NCBI GenBank assembly: GCA_965116905.1
Contig: OZ220732.1
Coordinates: 1,344,001-1,408,000 of the forward strand
Length of the DNA stretch: 64,000 nt
Reading direction: 5' to 3'
DNA from: Longimicrobiales bacterium
GTDB lineage: Bacteria > Gemmatimonadota > Gemmatimonadetes > Longimicrobiales > Gaopeijiaceae
The translations under genes and the position numbers were made by a program. Shown here in pieces: positions 1,626 through 61,899 of the stretch. Numbering within the stretch: position 1 is the stretch's first letter; each line of letters opens with the position of its first letter. The notes beneath the pieces were generated by a model. That model was not told the DNA's origin, made no database searches, and worked only from the letters and a program-made list of their open reading frames with translations.

Positions 1626-1702
1626 CAGCCCGTGGACAAAATCCCCCCGGCATTCGAACGTCGATGCATCCGGGCCGGACGCTCGGCCTCACCTCATCAA
1701 AC

Positions 1703-1741
1703 TGTAAATCAAAATTTACACGATGTCATGTTTACCTTACA
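1703..1741. repeat. 39-bp double-palindrome element, copy 1
   Basis: TGTAAATCAAAATTTACA-cga-TGTCATGTTTACCTTACA; AT-rich island in intergenic DNA. Confidence 0.85.
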
Positions 1742-1926
1742 TATTCGGTTGTCGGGGCCGCACTCTTCGTTGCTCCTCGGGCCCGTAGCGCTGCTACTGG
1801 CCCTTCGTCGCGCCTTGCCGGCCCGGCGCCTCGCCGCTCTCGGTGCTCGGGCGGCTTCATCCGCGGACTAGTCCGCACGGCCTGGCCGCCCGTGGACGCA
1901 ATCCCCTCGGCAATCGAGCGGCGCTG

Positions 1927-17756: not shown

Positions 17757-18329
17757 TCAGCCTTCCTCCGAGTCCATCGCGGCCCCGATCGCGCGGGCAT
17801 ACCAGTCGAGTGTCTCGATGAAGCCGGCAAAGGACTTTTCGTAGTGCGGCGCCGCGGGTTCGCCGTCTTCGCCGAAGCTGCCCGACACCCTGGAGACGTG
17901 CATTCCGGCCACCGGCAGGGCCTTGAGGCGGAGGAACAGGAGCTGCAGGTGGTTGTGCACCTGGACACCGCCAAAACCCCCCGCGGACACGGTCACGATT
18001 CCGACCGGCTTGCGGAACCACTCGCCGTAGATGTAGTCGAGCGCGTTCTTGAGAACGCCCGGGATGGAGCCGTTGTATTCGGGACTGACGACCACGACGG
18101 CGTCGGCGGCCCTCACCGCCTCCGAGAAGCGGACCAGCCCCGGCGGCGGGTCGTCCCGCATGTGCAGGCGCTCCTCCATGATCGGCAGGTCCAGGCTGCG
18201 AAGGTCCAGCAGCGGCGCGTCGGCCCCCGCCTGTCCGAGCCGGTCGCCGGCGAAGCGTGCCACCCTGATGGACTGGCGGCCGCGGCGTACCGAGCCCACG
18301 AGAACCGGGATGCGCAGCGGACGGTTCAC
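17757..18329 (-). CDS. NADPH-dependent FMN reductase
   Basis: GSVRRGRQS, SPEYNGSIPGVLKNALD, KPVGIV; GTGA-coupled to upstream ligase. Confidence 0.9.
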   Translation of the reverse strand: MNRPLRIPVLVGSVRRGRQSIRVARFAGDRLGQAGADAPLLDLRSLDLPIMEERLHMRDDPPPGLVRFSEAVRAADAVVVVSPEYNGSIPGVLKNALDYIYGEWFRKPVGIVTVSAGGFGGVQVHNHLQLLFLRLKALPVAGMHVSRVSGSFGEDGEPAAPHYEKSFAGFIETLDWYARAIGAAMDSEEG

Positions 18330-19918
18330 CGGGGACGGCCGGACGCGCCGGTCGTGGTCGGAGCACCCGAATCCCGGCCGGATGCGCGCACCTCCCGTTT
18401 CAGCGCTCCGCGGTCCACCTTGCCCAGGTGCGTGCGCGGCAGGTCGGCCAGGATATGGATCGCGCGCGGGTGCTTGTAGGACTCCAGCCGGGCGGCGACG
18501 TGGGCGCGGAGGCCGGCGACGTTTCCGCGGGGGTCGTCCTCGCGGGGCACAAGCACCACGAACGCCTCCGGAACCGTCAGTCCGTCTTCGGTCTCGATCC
18601 CCACCACCGCCGCCTCCTTTACACGCGGGTGTTGCAGCAGGCACTCCTCGGCCTCCCCGGGCGAAAACCACTTCCCCGAGACCTTGAGCAGGTCGTCGGC
18701 GCGTCCCTGGTAGCTGAAGCACCCGTCCTGGTCGCGCGTCATCATGTCGCCCGAAATGTACCACTCCCCGGCGAACGCGTGGCGCGTCGCTTCCGGGTGC
18801 TGCCAGTAGCCGTGCGCGAGGGACCCGCCCCGCACCCGCATCCGGCCGACTTCGCCGGTCTCCACCTCGTTGCCGTCGTCGTCGCAGAGCAGGACCTCGA
18901 ATCCGGGAACCGCGCGGCCGAGCGTCCCGGGCCGCACCTCGCCGGGCCGATTCGAGATGAAGACGTGCCACATCTCGGCCGTGCCGAGCCCATCGAGGAG
19001 TTCGACGCCGAAGGTGTCGTCCCAGCGGTGGTGCAGGGTGGGCGGCAGGGGTTCGCCGGCCGAGGTGGACAGCCGCAGACAGCTCAGGTCCCGGGCGTGC
19101 GCGTCCGGGTGGGCGACCATGTGATTCACCATGGTAGGGACGTTGACCAGGATCGTGGGGCGGTGGCGGGCGATCTGCGTGAACAGCTCGTCGGCGGTGC
19201 AGCGCTCCGGAAAGAGCACGGCCGAGGCGCCTGCGGCGAGGGGAAAAAAGAGGTTGGAGCCGGTGGCGTACCCGAAGTAGAGCTTGGGCACCGAGAGGGT
19301 GATGTCCTCGGGCGCGTAGCGGAGAACGCCCTTCGCGTAGCATTCGGTGGTGTTGGCAAACGACGCGTGGCTCTGGATCACGCCCTTGGGGCGACCGGTC
19401 GTGCCGCCCGAGAACAGCCAGATCGCGGGGTCGTCGAAATGTGAAGTAAAGTTGACATAATGTAAACTGGAGTTGTCAACAAGAGCATCGTCGTCGGGGG
19501 TGCCGAGGACGAGCAGACGGGGTGGATTGGGCGCGCCGCGCGCCGCCTCCAGGAAGGTCGCCGCGTGGTCCGAGTGGATTACGGCGGCTGTCGCGCGCGT
19601 GTAGTCGTACATGTCGCGGACTCGCGACGCGCCCAGGTAGCAGTTCACCATCACGCCGACCGCGCCCATCTTGAGCGCACCGAAGAGCGCGGCGGGGAAG
19701 TCCGGAACGTCGGGGAGACCCACGAGCACGCGGTCTCCGGGACGAACGCCGGCCGCTTCCAGGGCGTTGGCAAACTGGTTGGCGCGGGCCTGCAGCGCCG
19801 CGTAGCTGACGGTGCCGTCGCGTGTCCGCAGGGCGATCCGCTCACCGAGCCCCTCCCGGATCCGGTCGTCCAGGAAGTAGTCGGCGATGTTGAAGGGGTC
19901 GGGAGGGTCGAAGCGCAT
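18326..19918 (-). CDS. Benzoate/2-aminobenzoate-CoA ligase family
   Basis: WLFSGGTTGRPKG, KLYFGYATG, SAGE, DGLGTAE, GRADDLLKVSG, LPRTHLGK; divergent from anthraniloyl-CoA cluster. Confidence 0.9.
   Translation of the reverse strand: MRFDPPDPFNIADYFLDDRIREGLGERIALRTRDGTVSYAALQARANQFANALEAAGVRPGDRVLVGLPDVPDFPAALFGALKMGAVGVMVNCYLGASRVRDMYDYTRATAAVIHSDHAATFLEAARGAPNPPRLLVLGTPDDDALVDNSSLHYVNFTSHFDDPAIWLFSGGTTGRPKGVIQSHASFANTTECYAKGVLRYAPEDITLSVPKLYFGYATGSNLFFPLAAGASAVLFPERCTADELFTQIARHRPTILVNVPTMVNHMVAHPDAHARDLSCLRLSTSAGEPLPPTLHHRWDDTFGVELLDGLGTAEMWHVFISNRPGEVRPGTLGRAVPGFEVLLCDDDGNEVETGEVGRMRVRGGSLAHGYWQHPEATRHAFAGEWYISGDMMTRDQDGCFSYQGRADDLLKVSGKWFSPGEAEECLLQHPRVKEAAVVGIETEDGLTVPEAFVVLVPREDDPRGNVAGLRAHVAARLESYKHPRAIHILADLPRTHLGKVDRGALKREVRASGRDSGAPTTTGASGRPR
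19440..19478. repeat. 39-bp double-palindrome element, copy 2 (inside CDS)
   Basis: TGTGAAGTAAAGTTGACA-taa-TGTAAACTGGAGTTGTCA; read in-frame on the minus strand as VDNSSLHYVNFTSH. Confidence 0.85.
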
Positions 19919-19979: not shown

Positions 19980-20966
19980 ATGGAGAACCACCTCTGGGGC
20001 CAGGCGACGTGGACGGAGCTGGCGCGTCTCGGTCTTGCCGTCCGTGAACGAGGCGGCCCGGACACCGAGAGCGGCGGCGCGGACGGGAGTGCCCACGCCC
20101 CACCCGGCTCCCGCGTCGTCGCGTTGCTCCCGACCGGCGCGGTCGAGGCCCACGGCCCCCATCTCCCGCTCACCACCGACGTCACGATCGCGAACGCCGC
20201 CGCGCAGGCCGCGCTGCCCGGTCTCCGGCGCCTGGGCCTCCATCCGGTCATTCTGCCCCCCCTGCCGTACACGGCCGCCCCTTTCGCGGCGGGCTTCCCG
20301 GGCACGATCTCGGTGCGTCCCGCGACCGTCACCGCGCTGCTGGCCGACGTGGCGGCCTCGCTGGAACGACAGGGTGCGGCCGCGCTCGTCGTCGTCAACG
20401 CGCACCTCGACCCGGCCCACCTGGACGCGATCCGGAAGGTGGTGCGCGGCGGGAACGCTGCGGGCGCGGCGGTGCCCTCGCGGCACCCGGGTGAGGCCCC
20501 CGCTCGGGACGCGGCTCCGGCTCGCGACGAGGCCCCCACGCGCGACGGGGCCCCCGCTCGCCACGAGGCCCCCACGCGCGACGAAGCCACCGCTCGCGAC
20601 CAGGGCTGGCCCATGCCCGTCATCCACCCCGACCTCACCGAGCGGCGCTGGGCCTCGCGCCTGACCGCGGAATTCAGGAGCGGGGCGTGTCATGCCGGGT
20701 CCTACGAGACCTCGGTGGTGATGGTCGCGGCCCCGGAGCTGGTTCGCGAGGACGAGCGGCGTGGATTGGCCAAAAACCCGGCCTCGCTGTCGGTCGCGAT
20801 CCGTGAGGGCGCGGCCACCTTCGAGGAGGCCGGGGTCACGGCGGCCTACTGCGGCGATCCCGCCGCGGCGACCCGGGAAGAGGGGGAGGAGACCCTGGAG
20901 GTGCTGGCGCGGATCGTGGTCGAAGCGGTGGAAGAGCGGCTGGGGCGAGAGACGAGGCCGGCATGA
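19980..20966 (+). CDS. Creatininase-family amidohydrolase
   Basis: LPTGAVEAHGPHLPLTTD, FPGTIS, VNAH, HAGSYETS, GDPAAATREEG; AGGAGG RBS. Confidence 0.9.
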   Translation: MENHLWGQATWTELARLGLAVRERGGPDTESGGADGSAHAPPGSRVVALLPTGAVEAHGPHLPLTTDVTIANAAAQAALPGLRRLGLHPVILPPLPYTAAPFAAGFPGTISVRPATVTALLADVAASLERQGAAALVVVNAHLDPAHLDAIRKVVRGGNAAGAAVPSRHPGEAPARDAAPARDEAPTRDGAPARHEAPTRDEATARDQGWPMPVIHPDLTERRWASRLTAEFRSGACHAGSYETSVVMVAAPELVREDERRGLAKNPASLSVAIREGAATFEEAGVTAAYCGDPAAATREEGEETLEVLARIVVEAVEERLGRETRPA

Positions 20967-40294: not shown

Positions 40295-40333
40295 TGTCAA
40301 CTAAAGGTTACGTATTGTAATGTTTACTTTACA
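40295..40333. repeat. 39-bp double-palindrome element, copy 3 (contains the amidase ATG)
   Basis: TGTCAACTAAAGGTTACG-tat-TGTAATGTTTACTTTACA. Confidence 0.8.
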
Positions 40334-43894: not shown

Positions 43895-45118
43895 ATGAAG
43901 CCGCATCCTCTCCTGGCCTTGATGTCCCTGGCCGCGTTTGCCTGCGACCAGGGCCAGGAATCTGCGCCCTTCCCCACCACCCAGGTCCGCGACAGCGCGG
44001 GAATCCGGATCGTCGAGAACCCGCGTCCGTCGGACAGGTCGCGGCTCCCCTGGCGGATCGGTCCGGAGCCCGCCGTGTCCATCGGTGCCGTGGAGGGCGA
44101 CGAGCCCTACATGCTCGTCGGGGCCATCGACGCCACCAGGCTAAGCGACGGTCGCATCGTCGTTGTGAATGGCGGAACGAGCGAGCTGCGCGTGTTCGAC
44201 GCAGTGGGGGATCACGTCGCAACCTGGGGCGGCCGCGGAGAGGGTCCGGGCGAATTCGGAGGCCTCTACGCGGTCGAGCGATGGCCGGGAAACTCGATCA
44301 TCGCCTGGTACACAACGCGCCTGGGGATTTCGGCCTTCGACGCGCAGGGGAACTACGGCCGCACGTGGGAACTCGTGCAGGAGGGGTCCATCCCGCTAAT
44401 GCTTGGCTTCCGGCCCGAGTACGCGATGCACGACGGCTCGATTCTCGCGGTTCACATGCCCGAGTCTTCGGATACCGTCGTCGTTCAGCTCAGGGACGGT
44501 GAGGGAAGGATACGGGGTTCGCTAGGGACGCACAGGGTCGCCGAACCGTATATCCATTCCCCGGGAACCGACCAATCACTGCTGCTCGAGAAGACCTTCG
44601 GGCACGAACCGGTCTGGACACCGTGGGGAGGCCTGGTCGTTATCGCCCACACGGGTCGGTACGAACTGAGGGCCTTCGCGGCGGACGGTTCTCTGGCGCG
44701 GATCGTCAGGCGCGACCATGTGCCCCGTTCTCCGACCCCGGCCCAGATCGAGGCTTACATCGAGGGACAACTCGCCTGGACCACCGACGTGGCCGAGAGC
44801 CAGAGAGCGCGGTGGCGTGAGGGATACGAGTCGGCGCCGGTAGCGGAGCACCTTCCGGCGTTCGAGTCGGTCATGTCCGACGCGGCGGGCCACCTTTGGG
44901 TTGCGGAATACGAGTTCTCAACGGCGGCTCGGGGCACATACGAGGAGCGACCGCCCCGACTCTGGACGGTTTTCGATCCGGAAGGCAGGGTGTTGGGCAA
45001 TGTCGAGACGCCGGAGGACCTGTGGATCCACGAAATCGGCGAAGACTACATCCTTGGCGTGGTTCTCGACGAACTCAATGTGGAGTATGTACAGGTGTGG
45101 ACGCTCGAGCGGCTATGA
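43895..45118 (+). CDS. 6-bladed beta-propeller lipoprotein, paralog 1
   Basis: Lipobox AFAC, RDSAGIRIVEN, GEGPGEF, WTVFDPEG, EIGEDY. Confidence 0.85.
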   Translation: MKPHPLLALMSLAAFACDQGQESAPFPTTQVRDSAGIRIVENPRPSDRSRLPWRIGPEPAVSIGAVEGDEPYMLVGAIDATRLSDGRIVVVNGGTSELRVFDAVGDHVATWGGRGEGPGEFGGLYAVERWPGNSIIAWYTTRLGISAFDAQGNYGRTWELVQEGSIPLMLGFRPEYAMHDGSILAVHMPESSDTVVVQLRDGEGRIRGSLGTHRVAEPYIHSPGTDQSLLLEKTFGHEPVWTPWGGLVVIAHTGRYELRAFAADGSLARIVRRDHVPRSPTPAQIEAYIEGQLAWTTDVAESQRARWREGYESAPVAEHLPAFESVMSDAAGHLWVAEYEFSTAARGTYEERPPRLWTVFDPEGRVLGNVETPEDLWIHEIGEDYILGVVLDELNVEYVQVWTLERL

Positions 45119-45207
45119 TCCGCGTTGCGGGAACGATGCTTCAGGATAGGCTGGCCCTTTGGGCGCGCGAATGTTCAGATGGGCCTAATTTCCACCGGGA
45201 GGCTTTT

Positions 45208-46410
45208 GTGAGGCTGAATCCTCTCCTTGGCCTGATGTCTGTGGCCGCGCTTGCCTGTGAGCAGGGCCGGCAATCACCGCTCTCTCTCCCCACTCAAACA
45301 CGCGACAGCGCGGGAATCCGGATCGTCGAGAACGCGCAGCCGCCGGAGGGGTCGCGGCTCTCGTGGCGGATCGGCCCGGAGCCCGCCGTCTCCATCGGAG
45401 CCGTTGAAGGCGACGAGCCCTACATGCTCGACGGGGCCATCGACGCCACCAGGCTGAGCGACGGACGCATCGTCGTCGCCAACGTGGGCACACAGGAGCT
45501 GCGGGTCTTCGACCCAGCGGGGAACCATCTCGCGACCTGGGGTGGCCAGGGGGAGGGGCCGGGGGAATTCACGGGTCTCTGGCAGGTGGAGCCGTGGCCG
45601 GGCGACTCGATCGTGGCCTGGAGTGCACCACGCTTCGGGATCTCGGTCTTCGATGGGCGGGGGACCTACGCTCGCACGTTCAGGCTGGTGCACGACGAAG
45701 CCACATCACCGATGCAGCGCTTCTGGCCACAGTCGACGACGCGAGACGGAGCCCTTCTCGCGGTGCACGGGCCCGAAGACGCGGACACAGTCGTCGTTCA
45801 ACTCAGAGACGGCCAAGGCGGAGTCCGGAGCTCGTTCGGCACCCATCCCGGCAGTGAGCCATACATCCACCGCGAGGGGGACCGGTCGATGCTGTTCTGG
45901 AAGATCTTCGGGCGGCAGTCGGTGTGGAGTCCGTGGAGCGACCTGACCGTCGTCGCCCACACCGGCCGCTACGAACTCACGGCGTTCGGTTCCGATGGGT
46001 CCCTGAGCCGGATCGTCAGGCGAGATCATATCCCGCGCGCGCCCTCGGAGACTGACGTCGAAGCCTTTGTCGAGTGGCAGATCGGGCGCAGCAGGCGCAG
46101 CTCCGAGAGCGAAATGGCCGAGTCGCGACGGCGGTATCGGAGCGTGCCGGTCGCCGAGCACTTTCCGGCTTTCGAGTCGATCTTGAGCGATGCCCGCAAC
46201 CACCTCTGGGTTGAGGAATACGAGCTGCCGGGAGAAGAGGAGCCGGGAACGCTCTGGACCGTTTTCGATTCGGAAGGCCGCGCGCTGGGGTTCATGGAGA
46301 CGCCGGAGGGTCTGTGGATCCACGAGATCGGAGAGGACTATATCCTCGGCCGTGCCCTCGACGAACTCAATGTGGAGTACGTGCAGGTGTGGACGCTGGA
46401 GCGTTCCTAG
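45208..46410 (+). CDS. 6-bladed beta-propeller lipoprotein, paralog 2
   Basis: Same motifs; GGGAGG RBS before GTG; very similar to paralog 1. Confidence 0.85.
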   Translation: MRLNPLLGLMSVAALACEQGRQSPLSLPTQTRDSAGIRIVENAQPPEGSRLSWRIGPEPAVSIGAVEGDEPYMLDGAIDATRLSDGRIVVANVGTQELRVFDPAGNHLATWGGQGEGPGEFTGLWQVEPWPGDSIVAWSAPRFGISVFDGRGTYARTFRLVHDEATSPMQRFWPQSTTRDGALLAVHGPEDADTVVVQLRDGQGGVRSSFGTHPGSEPYIHREGDRSMLFWKIFGRQSVWSPWSDLTVVAHTGRYELTAFGSDGSLSRIVRRDHIPRAPSETDVEAFVEWQIGRSRRSSESEMAESRRRYRSVPVAEHFPAFESILSDARNHLWVEEYELPGEEEPGTLWTVFDSEGRALGFMETPEGLWIHEIGEDYILGRALDELNVEYVQVWTLERS

Positions 46411-46431
46411 GGCCGTCGGGGTAGGAGACGT

Positions 46432-47640
46432 ATGAGGATTCGCATTGTCGGTGTGATGCTCGCGCTCAGCGCGTTGGCCTGCCAGCAGGACCCCGGCACT
46501 CGTACCGCGCTGGCCAGTGCGGCCCGCGACAGCGCCGGCGTCCGGATCGTCGAGAACGCGCGGCCCCCGGACGGTTCGCGCCTGGGATGGACAATCGGAC
46601 CTGAACCTGCGGTTTCGATCGGTGTTTTCGAAGGCGAAGAGCCGTACATGCTGCACTGGGCCGACGATGCGACGCGGCTCCGGGACGGTCGGATTGTCGT
46701 GGCGAACAATGGGAGCAACGAACTGAGGGTGTTCGACGCAGACGGAACTCACGTGGCTACATGGGGCAGAGATGGGGAGGGGCCGTCGGACTTTGCTGCT
46801 CTCACGGAGGTAGATGCCTGGCCGGGCGACTCCATCATAGCCTGGTACACGGGTGCATTCGGAATGGCCGTTTACGACTCGGACGGGACTTTCGGGCGCA
46901 CGTTTGTGCTGCAGAGCCAGGAGAACGTCAATGGGCTCAGACCCCGACTTGACGCCGCGCGCGCGGATGGCACGTTGCTGTCGACAAGGGACGTGGAGGA
47001 CCTGGATTCAGCCATCGTAGAGGTATGGACGAGCCAAGGGGCGCTGTCCGCATCCATGGGAGCGCATCCCGCCGAGGAGATACTGATCACGGGCGAGGGA
47101 CGCGGACGAACGCTGAGCAGACTCGCGTACAGCCGCCAACTTGTCACAGGCCTGTGGGGCGACCTGGTTGTCATCAGTCACAACAGCCGCTACGAGATCA
47201 TGGCGTACCGCGTGGACGGCGTTCTCGACCGGGTCGTCAGGCGGGACCATTTGCTTCGATCCCCAACCGAGGCCGACCGCGAGCCCTTTGTCGAAGAACA
47301 GCTGTCGCTGCTTGAGGGCGCCGACATTCCCGAGTTCGTGGAGCGGGCAGCACGCCAGGAGTTCGAAACAACGCCCTTGGCCGACTTCTTCCCTGCCTTC
47401 GTGTCGGTCCTGGGCGACGCCGCCGGCCACCTCTGGTTGGAGGAGTACGAGTTCCCGCGAGAGAATCGCCCCGGCACGCTATGGACCGTGTTCGATCCCG
47501 AGGGAGACGCTCTCGGGTTTGTGGAGACGGCGGAGGGATTGGAGATCTACGAGATTGGTGAGGACTACATTCTGGGCCGGGTCAAGAACGAACTCGGCGT
47601 GGAGTCGATTCAGCTCTGGCCGCTGGACCGGTCCGGCTGA
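46432..47640 (+). CDS. 6-bladed beta-propeller lipoprotein, paralog 3
   Basis: ALAC lipobox, RDSAGVRIVEN, EIGEDY; AGGAG RBS. Confidence 0.85.
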   Translation: MRIRIVGVMLALSALACQQDPGTRTALASAARDSAGVRIVENARPPDGSRLGWTIGPEPAVSIGVFEGEEPYMLHWADDATRLRDGRIVVANNGSNELRVFDADGTHVATWGRDGEGPSDFAALTEVDAWPGDSIIAWYTGAFGMAVYDSDGTFGRTFVLQSQENVNGLRPRLDAARADGTLLSTRDVEDLDSAIVEVWTSQGALSASMGAHPAEEILITGEGRGRTLSRLAYSRQLVTGLWGDLVVISHNSRYEIMAYRVDGVLDRVVRRDHLLRSPTEADREPFVEEQLSLLEGADIPEFVERAARQEFETTPLADFFPAFVSVLGDAAGHLWLEEYEFPRENRPGTLWTVFDPEGDALGFVETAEGLEIYEIGEDYILGRVKNELGVESIQLWPLDRSG

Positions 47641-47681
47641 CGCCGGGAACAGCCCTCCAGGAGAGAAGGGACACAGGTTCG

Positions 47682-49034
47682 ATGCGTGGCCATTGCTCCC
47701 CGAGCACCCTGGCAACTCGTGGACTGCCAGTACTCGCAGGGTTGCTGCTGGTGTTCGCCGGATGCCAGGAGGGCCAGGCTCCAACGGCCGGTGCTTTCGT
47801 GGTCCGCGACAGCGCTGGCATCGAGATCGTCGAGAGTATGGCACCGGCCTGGGACGGAGATGGTTGGACCGTGTCGGGGACGCCGAGCCTGGTCATCGGT
47901 CAGATGGGGGGAGACGAGCGCTACCTGTTCGGGGAAGTGGCCGGCGCCGTCATGCTCCGCGATGGGCGAATCGCGGTGCTCGACGGGCAGAGCGCACTGA
48001 TCCGCGTGTACTCGCCCGAGGGCGAGCACATCGAGGACTGGGGAGGACAAGGGGAAGGCCCGGGAGAGTTCACCTCCGCCCAAACCATTTCGTCGTATCG
48101 GGGCGACTCGATCCTCGTGAGCGAGTTTGTCGCACGCCGGCTTGTGATCTTCGACGACCGGGGACGGCTCGGGAGAAGCATCGTCCCGGAGATGAGGATG
48201 TCATTTGCAACCGAACAGCGCAGGCGCATGGCAGAAGGGGACCGCTCGACGGTTCCCGGGTGGAGCTGCTGCAGACTCTGGGGCTCGCTCCGGACCGGCG
48301 CCTTCCTCCTCTCCTACCCCGAGATGATCCCCAACGAGGGGAGCGGGACAAAGAGGGCGTCGGTCACGGCGGCCATCATGCCGGATGCCGGCGGGGCGGC
48401 CGAATCCGTCGGCGTCTTCGGGGGGATGACCTATGAGCTCGGCCTGCAGGGATCGCGGTCCCGATTGCAGCTCCAACCGTGGTTCAACATGGTCCCGGGA
48501 CCCGATGGGTACTATGCCACGCAGGGAGACTCCTATTCGATTGATGCATACGACCTGGGCGGCAACCTAAGGCGAATCATCCGGCTCGCCCGCGAAACCC
48601 GACCCGTCACCGATGAGATCAAGGCGGCCTACGAAGCCGGACTTCGAGATCGGCTCATGGCGCCCGGCGCGTTTATCGACGCCGACTCTCCCGAGGAAAT
48701 GCTGGACATATTGCTCGCCGGTCCCTATCCCCCACATCTCCCCACGTTCTTTCAGCTCCTCGTGGACCCGGATGGCAACATCTGGGCCGGTCAGCGTCGG
48801 TACGGTGCGGGTGATTCCGGCGCGGGCGGCACCGACGACGGCACCGTGAACGACGACTCCCAGCCGTCCGAAATGAACGAGTTCATCGTCTTCGGAGCCG
48901 ACGGGCGGTACCTCGGCATGGTCGAGCTGACAGCCGATTTTCAGGTGCTTCTTATCGGCACGGACTTCATTCTCGGGGCGCTGAGGGATGACCTCGGCGT
49001 AGCCTGCGTCCACGTTTACCGGATTGAGAAGTAG
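47682..49034 (+). CDS. 6-bladed beta-propeller lipoprotein, paralog 4 (divergent)
   Basis: FAGC lipobox, RDSAGIEIVES, GEGPGEF. Confidence 0.82.
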   Translation: MRGHCSPSTLATRGLPVLAGLLLVFAGCQEGQAPTAGAFVVRDSAGIEIVESMAPAWDGDGWTVSGTPSLVIGQMGGDERYLFGEVAGAVMLRDGRIAVLDGQSALIRVYSPEGEHIEDWGGQGEGPGEFTSAQTISSYRGDSILVSEFVARRLVIFDDRGRLGRSIVPEMRMSFATEQRRRMAEGDRSTVPGWSCCRLWGSLRTGAFLLSYPEMIPNEGSGTKRASVTAAIMPDAGGAAESVGVFGGMTYELGLQGSRSRLQLQPWFNMVPGPDGYYATQGDSYSIDAYDLGGNLRRIIRLARETRPVTDEIKAAYEAGLRDRLMAPGAFIDADSPEEMLDILLAGPYPPHLPTFFQLLVDPDGNIWAGQRRYGAGDSGAGGTDDGTVNDDSQPSEMNEFIVFGADGRYLGMVELTADFQVLLIGTDFILGALRDDLGVACVHVYRIEK

Positions 49035-49054: not shown

Positions 49055-49093
49055 TGTCAACTACACTTTACATGATGTGACGTAAAGTTTACA
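49055..49093. repeat. 39-bp double-palindrome element, copy 4 (between convergent genes)
   Basis: TGTCAACTACACTTTACA-tga-TGTGACGTAAAGTTTACA. Confidence 0.85.
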
Positions 49094-60532: not shown

Positions 60533-60571
60533 TGTAAACTCCGGTTGACATGATGTGAACTGGAGTTGACA
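60533..60571. repeat. 39-bp double-palindrome element, copy 5
   Basis: TGTAAACTCCGGTTGACA-tga-TGTGAACTGGAGTTGACA, 3 nt after the CocE stop. Confidence 0.85.
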
Positions 60572-60636: not shown

Positions 60637-61899
60637 ATGCTCGACCTCCAACTATGCTCAAGGGGGCCCGCAAATCCAGCGCCCGCCCGTTTCGCGCCGC
60701 TGTTCGCGGCCGTCCTCCATGTGGCCGTCTTCCACGCGGCCGCGGCCTGCCAGGACGGTGCGCTGCAGAACCTCCCCGCTTCGCAAGTCCGGGACAGCAC
60801 CGGTATCCGAATTGTCGAGAACGCCCGCCCCGCCGACGATTCGCGATTGCCCTGGCGAATCGGCCGAGAGCCCTCGGTGTCGATCGGCGAAGTGACCGGT
60901 GAGGAAGCGTACATGCTGCACCGGGTGGACGACGCCGTGATGCTGCCGGACGGCCGTATCGTCGTCGCGAACACCGGGACAAGCGAGATCCGCGTTTTCG
61001 ATGCTTCCGGGATGCACCAGGCGACCTGGGGCCGGGAGGGAGGGGGGCCCGGGGAATTCACGGCTCTCGCCGGCGTGGCCCCCTGGCCGGGCGACTCCAT
61101 AGTCGCGTGGGACACGCGGACCGATGCCATCGCCGTCTTCGACTCGGTAGGAGCGTTGGGGCGCTCGTTTGTTCTCGAGGCGGAGGGTCGCCCCGCCGAG
61201 CCCCGGATGCCCATGAACGACGGCACGATTCTGGGGCGGATCGTGGATGCCGGGAGCGGCCCGGGCTACAGGCGCGAGCAGATCACGCACGAAGTGCGCG
61301 ATTCCGACGGACGCATGCTCGTCTCGCTGGGGGAGCACGCCGGGCGCGAGTCCTTCATCAACATGGACGGCCGCATGGCGGTGTTCGGCCTGCTGCCGTT
61401 CAGCCGCTCGCTGCACGAGGCGCTTTGGGGCGAGATGGTCATCCTCGCTCCGGACGATCACTACGAGATCCGTGCCTACGACCGGACGACCGGACGACTC
61501 GCGCGCATCGTTCGCCGCGACTACGCCAATCGTGCACCGACGCGCGAAGAGGTCGACCGGGCGATCGACGACGCCCTGGAACGGACCAACCTGAGCGGCG
61601 ATCGCCTCGAATGGACGCGCGAGGGCTACAAGGACATGCCGCTGGTGGAGGGCTTCCCGGCGTTTCGGTCACTCCTGGTCGATGTGCTGGACCATCTCTG
61701 GGTGCGGGAAGCGACCCTTCCGGGCATGGACAGGCCCGCACCCTTGTGGACGGTCTTCAACGCAGAAGGGCGGGTCCTGGGGTTCATTGAGACGCCCGAG
61801 GGGCTGACGGTGCTCGAGATCGGCGCCGACTACATCCTGGGGCAGGCCGCCGATGACCTGGGGGTCGAGTCGGTGCAGGTGTGGCCGCTGGAGCGGTAG
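60637..61899 (+). CDS. 6-bladed beta-propeller lipoprotein, paralog 5
   Basis: AAAC lipobox, RDSTGIRIVEN, GPGEF, WTVFN, EIGADY. Confidence 0.85.
   Translation: MLDLQLCSRGPANPAPARFAPLFAAVLHVAVFHAAAACQDGALQNLPASQVRDSTGIRIVENARPADDSRLPWRIGREPSVSIGEVTGEEAYMLHRVDDAVMLPDGRIVVANTGTSEIRVFDASGMHQATWGREGGGPGEFTALAGVAPWPGDSIVAWDTRTDAIAVFDSVGALGRSFVLEAEGRPAEPRMPMNDGTILGRIVDAGSGPGYRREQITHEVRDSDGRMLVSLGEHAGRESFINMDGRMAVFGLLPFSRSLHEALWGEMVILAPDDHYEIRAYDRTTGRLARIVRRDYANRAPTREEVDRAIDDALERTNLSGDRLEWTREGYKDMPLVEGFPAFRSLLVDVLDHLWVREATLPGMDRPAPLWTVFNAEGRVLGFIETPEGLTVLEIGADYILGQAADDLGVESVQVWPLER

Follow-up and report, generated by a model that had tools for sequence, protein, structure and literature searches.

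A dispersed 39-bp tandem palindrome, a likely XRE-repressor operator, overwrites a ligase linker in sponge-associated bacteria

The DNA uptake sequences DUS and USS of Neisseriaceae and Pasteurellaceae are read by a surface receptor. Rickettsia palindromic elements, which are palindromic repeats lying within open frames, add residues to proteins. The tandem ARG boxes of ArgR have an 18+3+18 layout, and the TyrR consensus resembles the 18-bp box described below. SlmA sites, which act in nucleoid occlusion, share with the present site a protein of transcription-factor fold, a dimer of dimers, and many chromosomal positions, as far as the consulted portions of the literature describe them. According to excerpts of PMC3709268, CylR2 of Enterococcus faecalis represses by binding its promoter. 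Uptake sequences are presented in excerpts of PMC2397512 and PMC2817400 as dispersed, conserved, and under selection or drive.

The 39-bp site reported here comes from a genus of sponge-associated bacteria. It is like uptake sequences in its distribution and like SlmA sites in the repressor fold of its likely reader, and is a member of neither group. In common with DUS and USS, it is a dispersed and highly conserved motif that occupies permissive places in core genes. In contrast to them, it is 39 bp long and doubly palindromic and numbers tens to hundreds of copies, of which 2-8% lie in genes (3/142 in the distant genome G082), against 35-65% in the excerpted sources on uptake sequences; and its likely reader is a cytoplasmic repressor. 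Unlike SlmA sites, it is associated with an XRE fold, shows no origin bias, varies greatly in copy number, and is carried by a miniature element (MITE). The likeness to TyrR and ArgR concerns the boxes only, and what surrounds the motif in genomes indicates an XRE protein. No account of the 39-bp motif or of the XRE-PBP protein was found in the part of the literature searched.

The window, that is, the whole 64-kb stretch of DNA analysed, belongs to genome G000 (4.2 Mb, contig C1); other G and L codes denote compared genomes and loci. The site at window positions 19440..19478 reads TGTGAAGTAAAGTTGACA TAA TGTAAACTGGAGTTGTCA and comprises two imperfect 18-bp palindromes with 3 bp between them. 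The left box (19440..19457) is of the TGTnAA-N6-TTnACA type, and the centre of the right box (19461..19478) lies 21 bp from its own. Both boxes are contained in an open frame on the minus strand (18326..19918) that encodes a ligase of 530 aa. The site begins at the last base of codon 147, ends in codon 160, and touches 14 codons (VDNSSLHYVNFTSH), and the reading frame is not aligned with its boundaries. A weight matrix built from the G000 copies gives the ligase site 55.9 bits, and the highest score in three locally shuffled genomes is 13.4, which excludes a chance match. The in-frame element of the preliminary description is thus real, with the frame open throughout. The site likely serves as an operator for two XRE dimers.

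The host gene passes the cut-off of the benzoate-CoA ligase family TIGR02262 (461.4 vs 375.25 bits). The preliminary description had called it an aminobenzoate-CoA ligase; the family holds, and the "aminobenzoate" part has its sole basis in neighbouring genes, a PRK08255-like hydroxylase and a Trp 2,3-dioxygenase-like gene, which resemble an anthranilate pathway. An FMN reductase gene and then metG come after the ligase gene. The region is covered by contigs of a sponge metatranscriptome, which cannot give transcript starts or levels. The codons within the site are rare for G000: TTA accounts for 0.1% of the codons for Leu, ACT for 3% of those for Thr, and TCA for 3% of those for Ser.

Insertion into the linker and overwriting of it had both been proposed. 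Among 121 aligned proteins, the distance between the anchors is 29 residues in all 57 proteins with the signature peptide and in 43 of the 64 without it; it is 28 residues in seven, and the remainder are longer. The 13-residue gap expected of an insertion was looked for among the 121 and not found. Because the orthologues are of equal length, the linker, a variable and tolerant part of the ligase, was overwritten by the 39-bp site and nothing was inserted. The DNA match would be incidental if orthologues from genomes lacking the element had the same peptide; they carry a different one, with GC-rich codons. The site is kept in 40/42 ligases of the genus and is absent from four outgroup ligases, with three more outgroup ligases unparsed.

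The constraint acts on the DNA. Across 40 genomes, third-position differences amount to 0.11 inside the site and to 0.26-0.52 in nine flanking windows; among nine close genomes the values are 0.02 inside and 0.14-0.46 outside. A/T occupies 0.62 of third positions inside the site and 0.09 downstream, and the letters kept are position-specific, TTA included. The proposed dual coding is therefore borne out by synonymous positions that are nearly frozen and by rare A/T-rich codons kept across the genus. No covariation between the arms of the site was detected, as arm complementarity equals that of a row-shuffled control, and the DNA hairpin of the 39 bp has only -2.6 kcal/mol. Frozen third positions together with absent arm covariation indicate a constraint on the double-stranded sequence. 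A hairpin or structured-RNA reading was rejected, since the arms do not covary and the MITE has no Rfam match.

The Rickettsia precedent fares worse than overwriting, as the ligase site adds no residues and has no conserved hairpin. An insertion of that type is refuted at the ligase locus by the equal length, and for the site in general an in-frame mobile palindrome is extremely improbable. Its length is a multiple of three and 8/37 of the G000 copies sit in a MITE, as such a reading would expect, but the ligase length is unchanged, the sites in smc and valS fall at the same residue and align with orthologues that lack them, the coding copies are free of MITE sequence, and the arms show no covariation.

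A weight-matrix scan of G000 finds 39 sites above 18 bits, 37 of them above 30 bits. Among its half-sites, 35/40 close pairs are 21 bp apart and nine boxes stand alone. The window holds five copies. The second (1703..1741) lies inside a MITE (1627..1869) of 243 bp with terminal inverted repeats and hairpin-forming arms, where it occupies the central module. The third (40295..40333) overlaps the point at which an amidase gene is predicted to start, the fourth (49055..49093) lies between two convergent genes, and the fifth (60533..60571) lies 3 bp past the stop codon of a CocE/NonD hydrolase. G000 also contains a pair of strong boxes spaced 5 bp instead of 3 (C1:914958-914998), the sole such pair, and a weak site of 28 bits with one good box inside an HpcH/HpaI aldolase gene (C1:1667575), which is possibly arising or decaying. 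The site at C1:448566, with a metallophosphoesterase gene on one side and a 746-aa gene on the other, recurs at the corresponding position in distant G082; the loci read for G003, G011, G023, and G044 did not show it.

The 243-bp MITE is common across the genus. G000 has eight full copies, which carry the 8/37 sites mentioned above, and three short copies without the central module. Even the trpB-trpA and atpH-atpA gaps contain an insertion. An autonomous transposon partner was not found in G000; a single 2-kb pair of MITE ends was rejected as a transposon because it encloses an ordinary membrane protein gene. No MITE sequence surrounds the coding copies of the site in G000, and repeated flanks accompany 81/142 sites in G082. 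The central module diverges by 0.25-0.31 and the arms by 0.05-0.075; this fits a shielding of the module from conversion, but hairpin constraint on the arms confounds the comparison, and it is not counted as support. A phage origin of the motif was rejected, as neither of the two exact matches in viral contigs was informative.

The same site is found in frame within smc (G000:C1:2878934) and valS (C1:3087775), two genes that flank the replication terminus in G000. It lies at residue 349 of smc in 18/24 genus genomes read and near the gene end of valS in 18/25, in a different reading frame. Both show the same third-position constraint and align with site-less orthologues, the site being at the same residue. 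Within the genus, 47/53 genomes have 11-302 motif matches (median 58) and six have 0-1; the counting pattern came from G000 and, as the genomes are related, the counts are not independent. Density among site-bearing genomes ranges from ~2 to 104 per Mb. In other genera of the order, 2/32 genomes have one or two matches.

Outside the genus, the motif leads to a protein family. An exact-match scan of species genomes returned at least 123 motif loci. Among the matches listed, a small XRE gene is present at 20/26 loci from beyond Gemmatimonadota, in many cases together with a gene for a membrane protein, and at 14/20 once the six loci that built the XRE profile are set aside; four of the six loci without an XRE gene are short. 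None of the 97 Gemmatimonadota motif loci among the matches listed has such a small XRE gene. The motif occurs at one locus per genome in 5/5 outside-phylum genomes checked. At L089, L121, L128, L129, and others, it is an operator-like site that precedes small XRE and membrane-protein gene pairs in many phyla. Locus L092 has three boxes in a row.

The XRE profile has one strong match in G000 (65.9 bits, the next 29.2) and one in the 1.2 Mb of G082 read (68.9, the next 26.1). The G000 match (C1:977773-978885) combines HTH_3 with a PBP_like domain and is the first gene before modA-modB-modC. The motif lies 56 bp upstream of it and precedes the gene in 39/39 site-bearing genus genomes read; an outside homologue has a weaker motif upstream (25.5 bits). 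The best PDB match of its helix-turn-helix is CylR2 (E 5.6e-9). Two structural models are poor (mean pLDDT 37 and 43), with only the helix-turn-helix confident. In contrast to CylR2, the domain here is fused to PBP_like and heads modABC, and the motif extends beyond its own locus to the 11-302 copies given above. The family PF12727 is present on a MoeA protein, according to excerpts of PMC10102598. The binding protein, unnamed in the preliminary description, is likely this XRE-PBP protein, a putative repressor of molybdate transport at the head of modABC, which very probably binds the 39-bp site. As with operators of CylR2-like XRE repressors, the motif lies upstream of the gene, and motif and protein are lost together, with G023 as the exception.

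It is improbable that another protein of the same specificity uses the dispersed sites and that the XRE-PBP gene merely follows. G003 and G023, which keep the gene and have lost most or all sites, would suit such a protein, but G000 and G082 (1.2 Mb) each have one protein of this XRE subfamily, and the XRE-PBP gene accompanies the sites in every site-bearing genome.

The positions of the sites bear on what they are for. Gene calls for the placement counts come from our own codon model, and G082 was read in 1.2 of 2.9 Mb. Convergent gaps hold 5/34 non-coding sites in G000 (5.1 expected) and 26/139 sites in G082 (20-22 expected), and divergent gaps in G082 hold 20 (27-31 expected). In 56 cases the promoter-like strand faces the following gene and in 58 it faces the other way; 86 genes have a site upstream and 108 downstream. 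Neither an enrichment at gene starts nor an absence between convergent genes, as a regulon predicts, was found. Across 165 sites on five chromosomes, the ori-ter distribution is uniform (KS p 0.15), where the position of ter was taken from skew in G000 and from an smc/valS proxy in the four others, and no bias of the parS, matS, or SlmA type relative to ori or ter was seen. Spacing is random (CV 1.14 in G000 and 0.97 in G082), and a 0.70-Mb site-free gap in G000 is borderline (p 0.05). Neighbouring genes in G000 are of unrelated function, and some sites lie inside the trp and atp operons. A metabolic regulon was rejected because the neighbours share no function, and an ori/ter-linked site was rejected because there is no bias. 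That the site matters apart from promoters, as had been suggested, agrees with the missing strand bias, the convergent gaps that are not avoided, and the coding copies that are kept.

In a global metal-responsive regulon, the sites would each act as a sigma-70-type promoter open to repression or as a roadblock to transcription, with the one in the ligase tuning the ligase-FMN reductase-metG transcript. This reading is unlikely. The family acts elsewhere by local autoregulation, and the motif reads as -35/17/-10 in 18/20 operators of other phyla. Moreover, the genes that follow the ligase mostly keep their order, and five G000 positions recur in the part read of distant G082, in addition to valS genus-wide. 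On the other side stand the placement counts just given, from convergent and divergent gaps to strand, the unrelated neighbours, and the imperfect sense -10 of the ligase site. The ligand domain is also deleted where sites are densest: the repressor match ends near residue 228 in G019, G038, and G082, which in the two that were read, G019 and G038, is due to an internal deletion, and these three repressors, which are without much of the domain, belong to genomes with 84, 38, and 104 sites per Mb. In site density the three genomes between them take ranks 1, 2, and 4.

The repressor may instead have been co-opted as a chromosome organiser that bridges or anchors distant sites, each of which ordinary selection keeps; we regard this as rather unlikely. 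The sites ignore gene function and orientation, the densest genomes can dispense with the ligand domain, and the TetR-family protein SlmA offers a precedent for co-option in the consulted parts of PMC5519180 and PMC4117426. However, SlmA sites favour the origin side in the portions of the literature consulted, and there is no ori or ter pattern here. The random spacing, the wide range of densities, and the loss of the system in several lineages also speak against an organiser, as does G082, which keeps its ligase site despite another 2.7 kb away, although that neighbour may be young.

The reading we prefer, with a rough probability of 0.4, is that the sites persist by a transformation-dependent molecular drive, as DNA uptake sequences do; dispersal, conservation, and permissive coding positions, the traits of uptake sequences, are all found for the 39-bp site. 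The 39 bases in the ligase are held at the DNA level after the linker was overwritten. The tandem site is likely bound by two dimers of the repressor, whose CylR2-like XRE part is joined to a domain resembling a molybdate-binding one, and the tight hold of this protein on the recipient chromosome would impede the exchange of strands across the site. Alleles with a site would then replace site-less alleles more often than the reverse, and each site would be kept on its own, anywhere, while binder and DNA uptake both exist. The MITE would bring new copies into intergenic DNA, with gene copies rare and old. It is more doubtful that the repressor operator became a selfish chromosomal mark, whose bound copies resist replacement, accumulate, ride the MITE, and rewrite SMC, ValS, and the ligase. 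Drive is favoured by the position-blind spread, the per-site conservation, and the G023 exception. Chromosome architecture and regulation are serious competitors. We know of no precedent for drive by a cytoplasmic repressor, and transformation in the genus is inferred from genes.

The losses of genes and sites are informative here. All 47 site-bearing genus genomes have the XRE-PBP gene, and five of the six genomes without sites lack it; G023 alone has the gene and no sites. modA is kept in 14/14 genomes checked, including all five gene-less ones, and in G011, G016, G044, and G046 the repressor gene and its operator are gone from between syntenic neighbours. A quick tree was built from valS (31 rows, without the site region, supported by SH-aLRT alone). 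It places G044, and likewise the clade of G011/G016/G046, within the site-bearing genomes, and G008+G023 are basal. Motif remnants in valS of G008 and G044 indicate that sites were lost there. By these comparisons, the repressor gene was likely lost three independent times.

ComEC, ComM, and the secretin are present in 51/53 genus genomes and missing from G008 and G023, in which ComEA, ComF, and PilB were also not found (five genomes tested); G023 has only a weaker DprA-family match. The whole type IV pilus and competence set was not found in these two, unlike in the other 51. Both genomes are small, and their clade counts as one evolutionary event. The G023 repressor has diverged at 21/128 conserved columns and its operator has decayed to 1.6 bits, a divergence that alone could explain the absent sites.

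Further points stand against drive: the uptake genes were lost in one event only, G003 has all tested genes yet no coding sites, and G017 retains 20 sites with a frameshifted helix-turn-helix, which is either a recent loss or a sequencing error. G003 keeps the repressor, the operator, all uptake genes tested, and MutS, and has 11 sites; the ligase, smc, and valS sites are lost, and 3/7 sites read lie in the MITE. The changes in its repressor (7/128 columns) stay within what other genomes show, and its operator reads CATAAC where close relatives have TATAAT. In G044, there is no smc match at E 1e-100, the ComM match is short, and the ComEC frame is short, which suggests a broad decay of chromosome and uptake functions. 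Matches to mutS of G011, G016, and G046 and to several valS and smc loci are split in very long open frames; for MutS, this suggests in-frame insertions such as inteins.

A long dispersed motif gains a likely protein partner here, and an XRE subfamily that is widespread across many phyla gains an operator consensus. The three gene losses and the one uptake-gene loss serve as natural knock-outs for a 39-bp site that shapes core protein sequences. If drive is true, occupancy by a protein alone can bias bacterial gene conversion and sites can spread without regulatory benefit; such a drive, acting through recombination and governed by a cytoplasmic transcription factor, would be the mirror image of hotspot erosion. 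If the architectural reading is true, the XRE repressor is a new case of co-option.

Other repeats were seen in the window and genome. A creatininase-like gene contains 18-bp tandem repeats at window 20495-20600, an added low-complexity insert. Five paralogous genes of ~400 aa without family matches, four of them in tandem, lie at 43895-49034 and 60721-61899. G000 also has near-identical, possibly mobile genes of 460-495 aa in several copies (C1:319774, 1011118, and 4179087; 1144388 and 3587799), which form three pairs of paralogues, tentatively labelled HNH-like.
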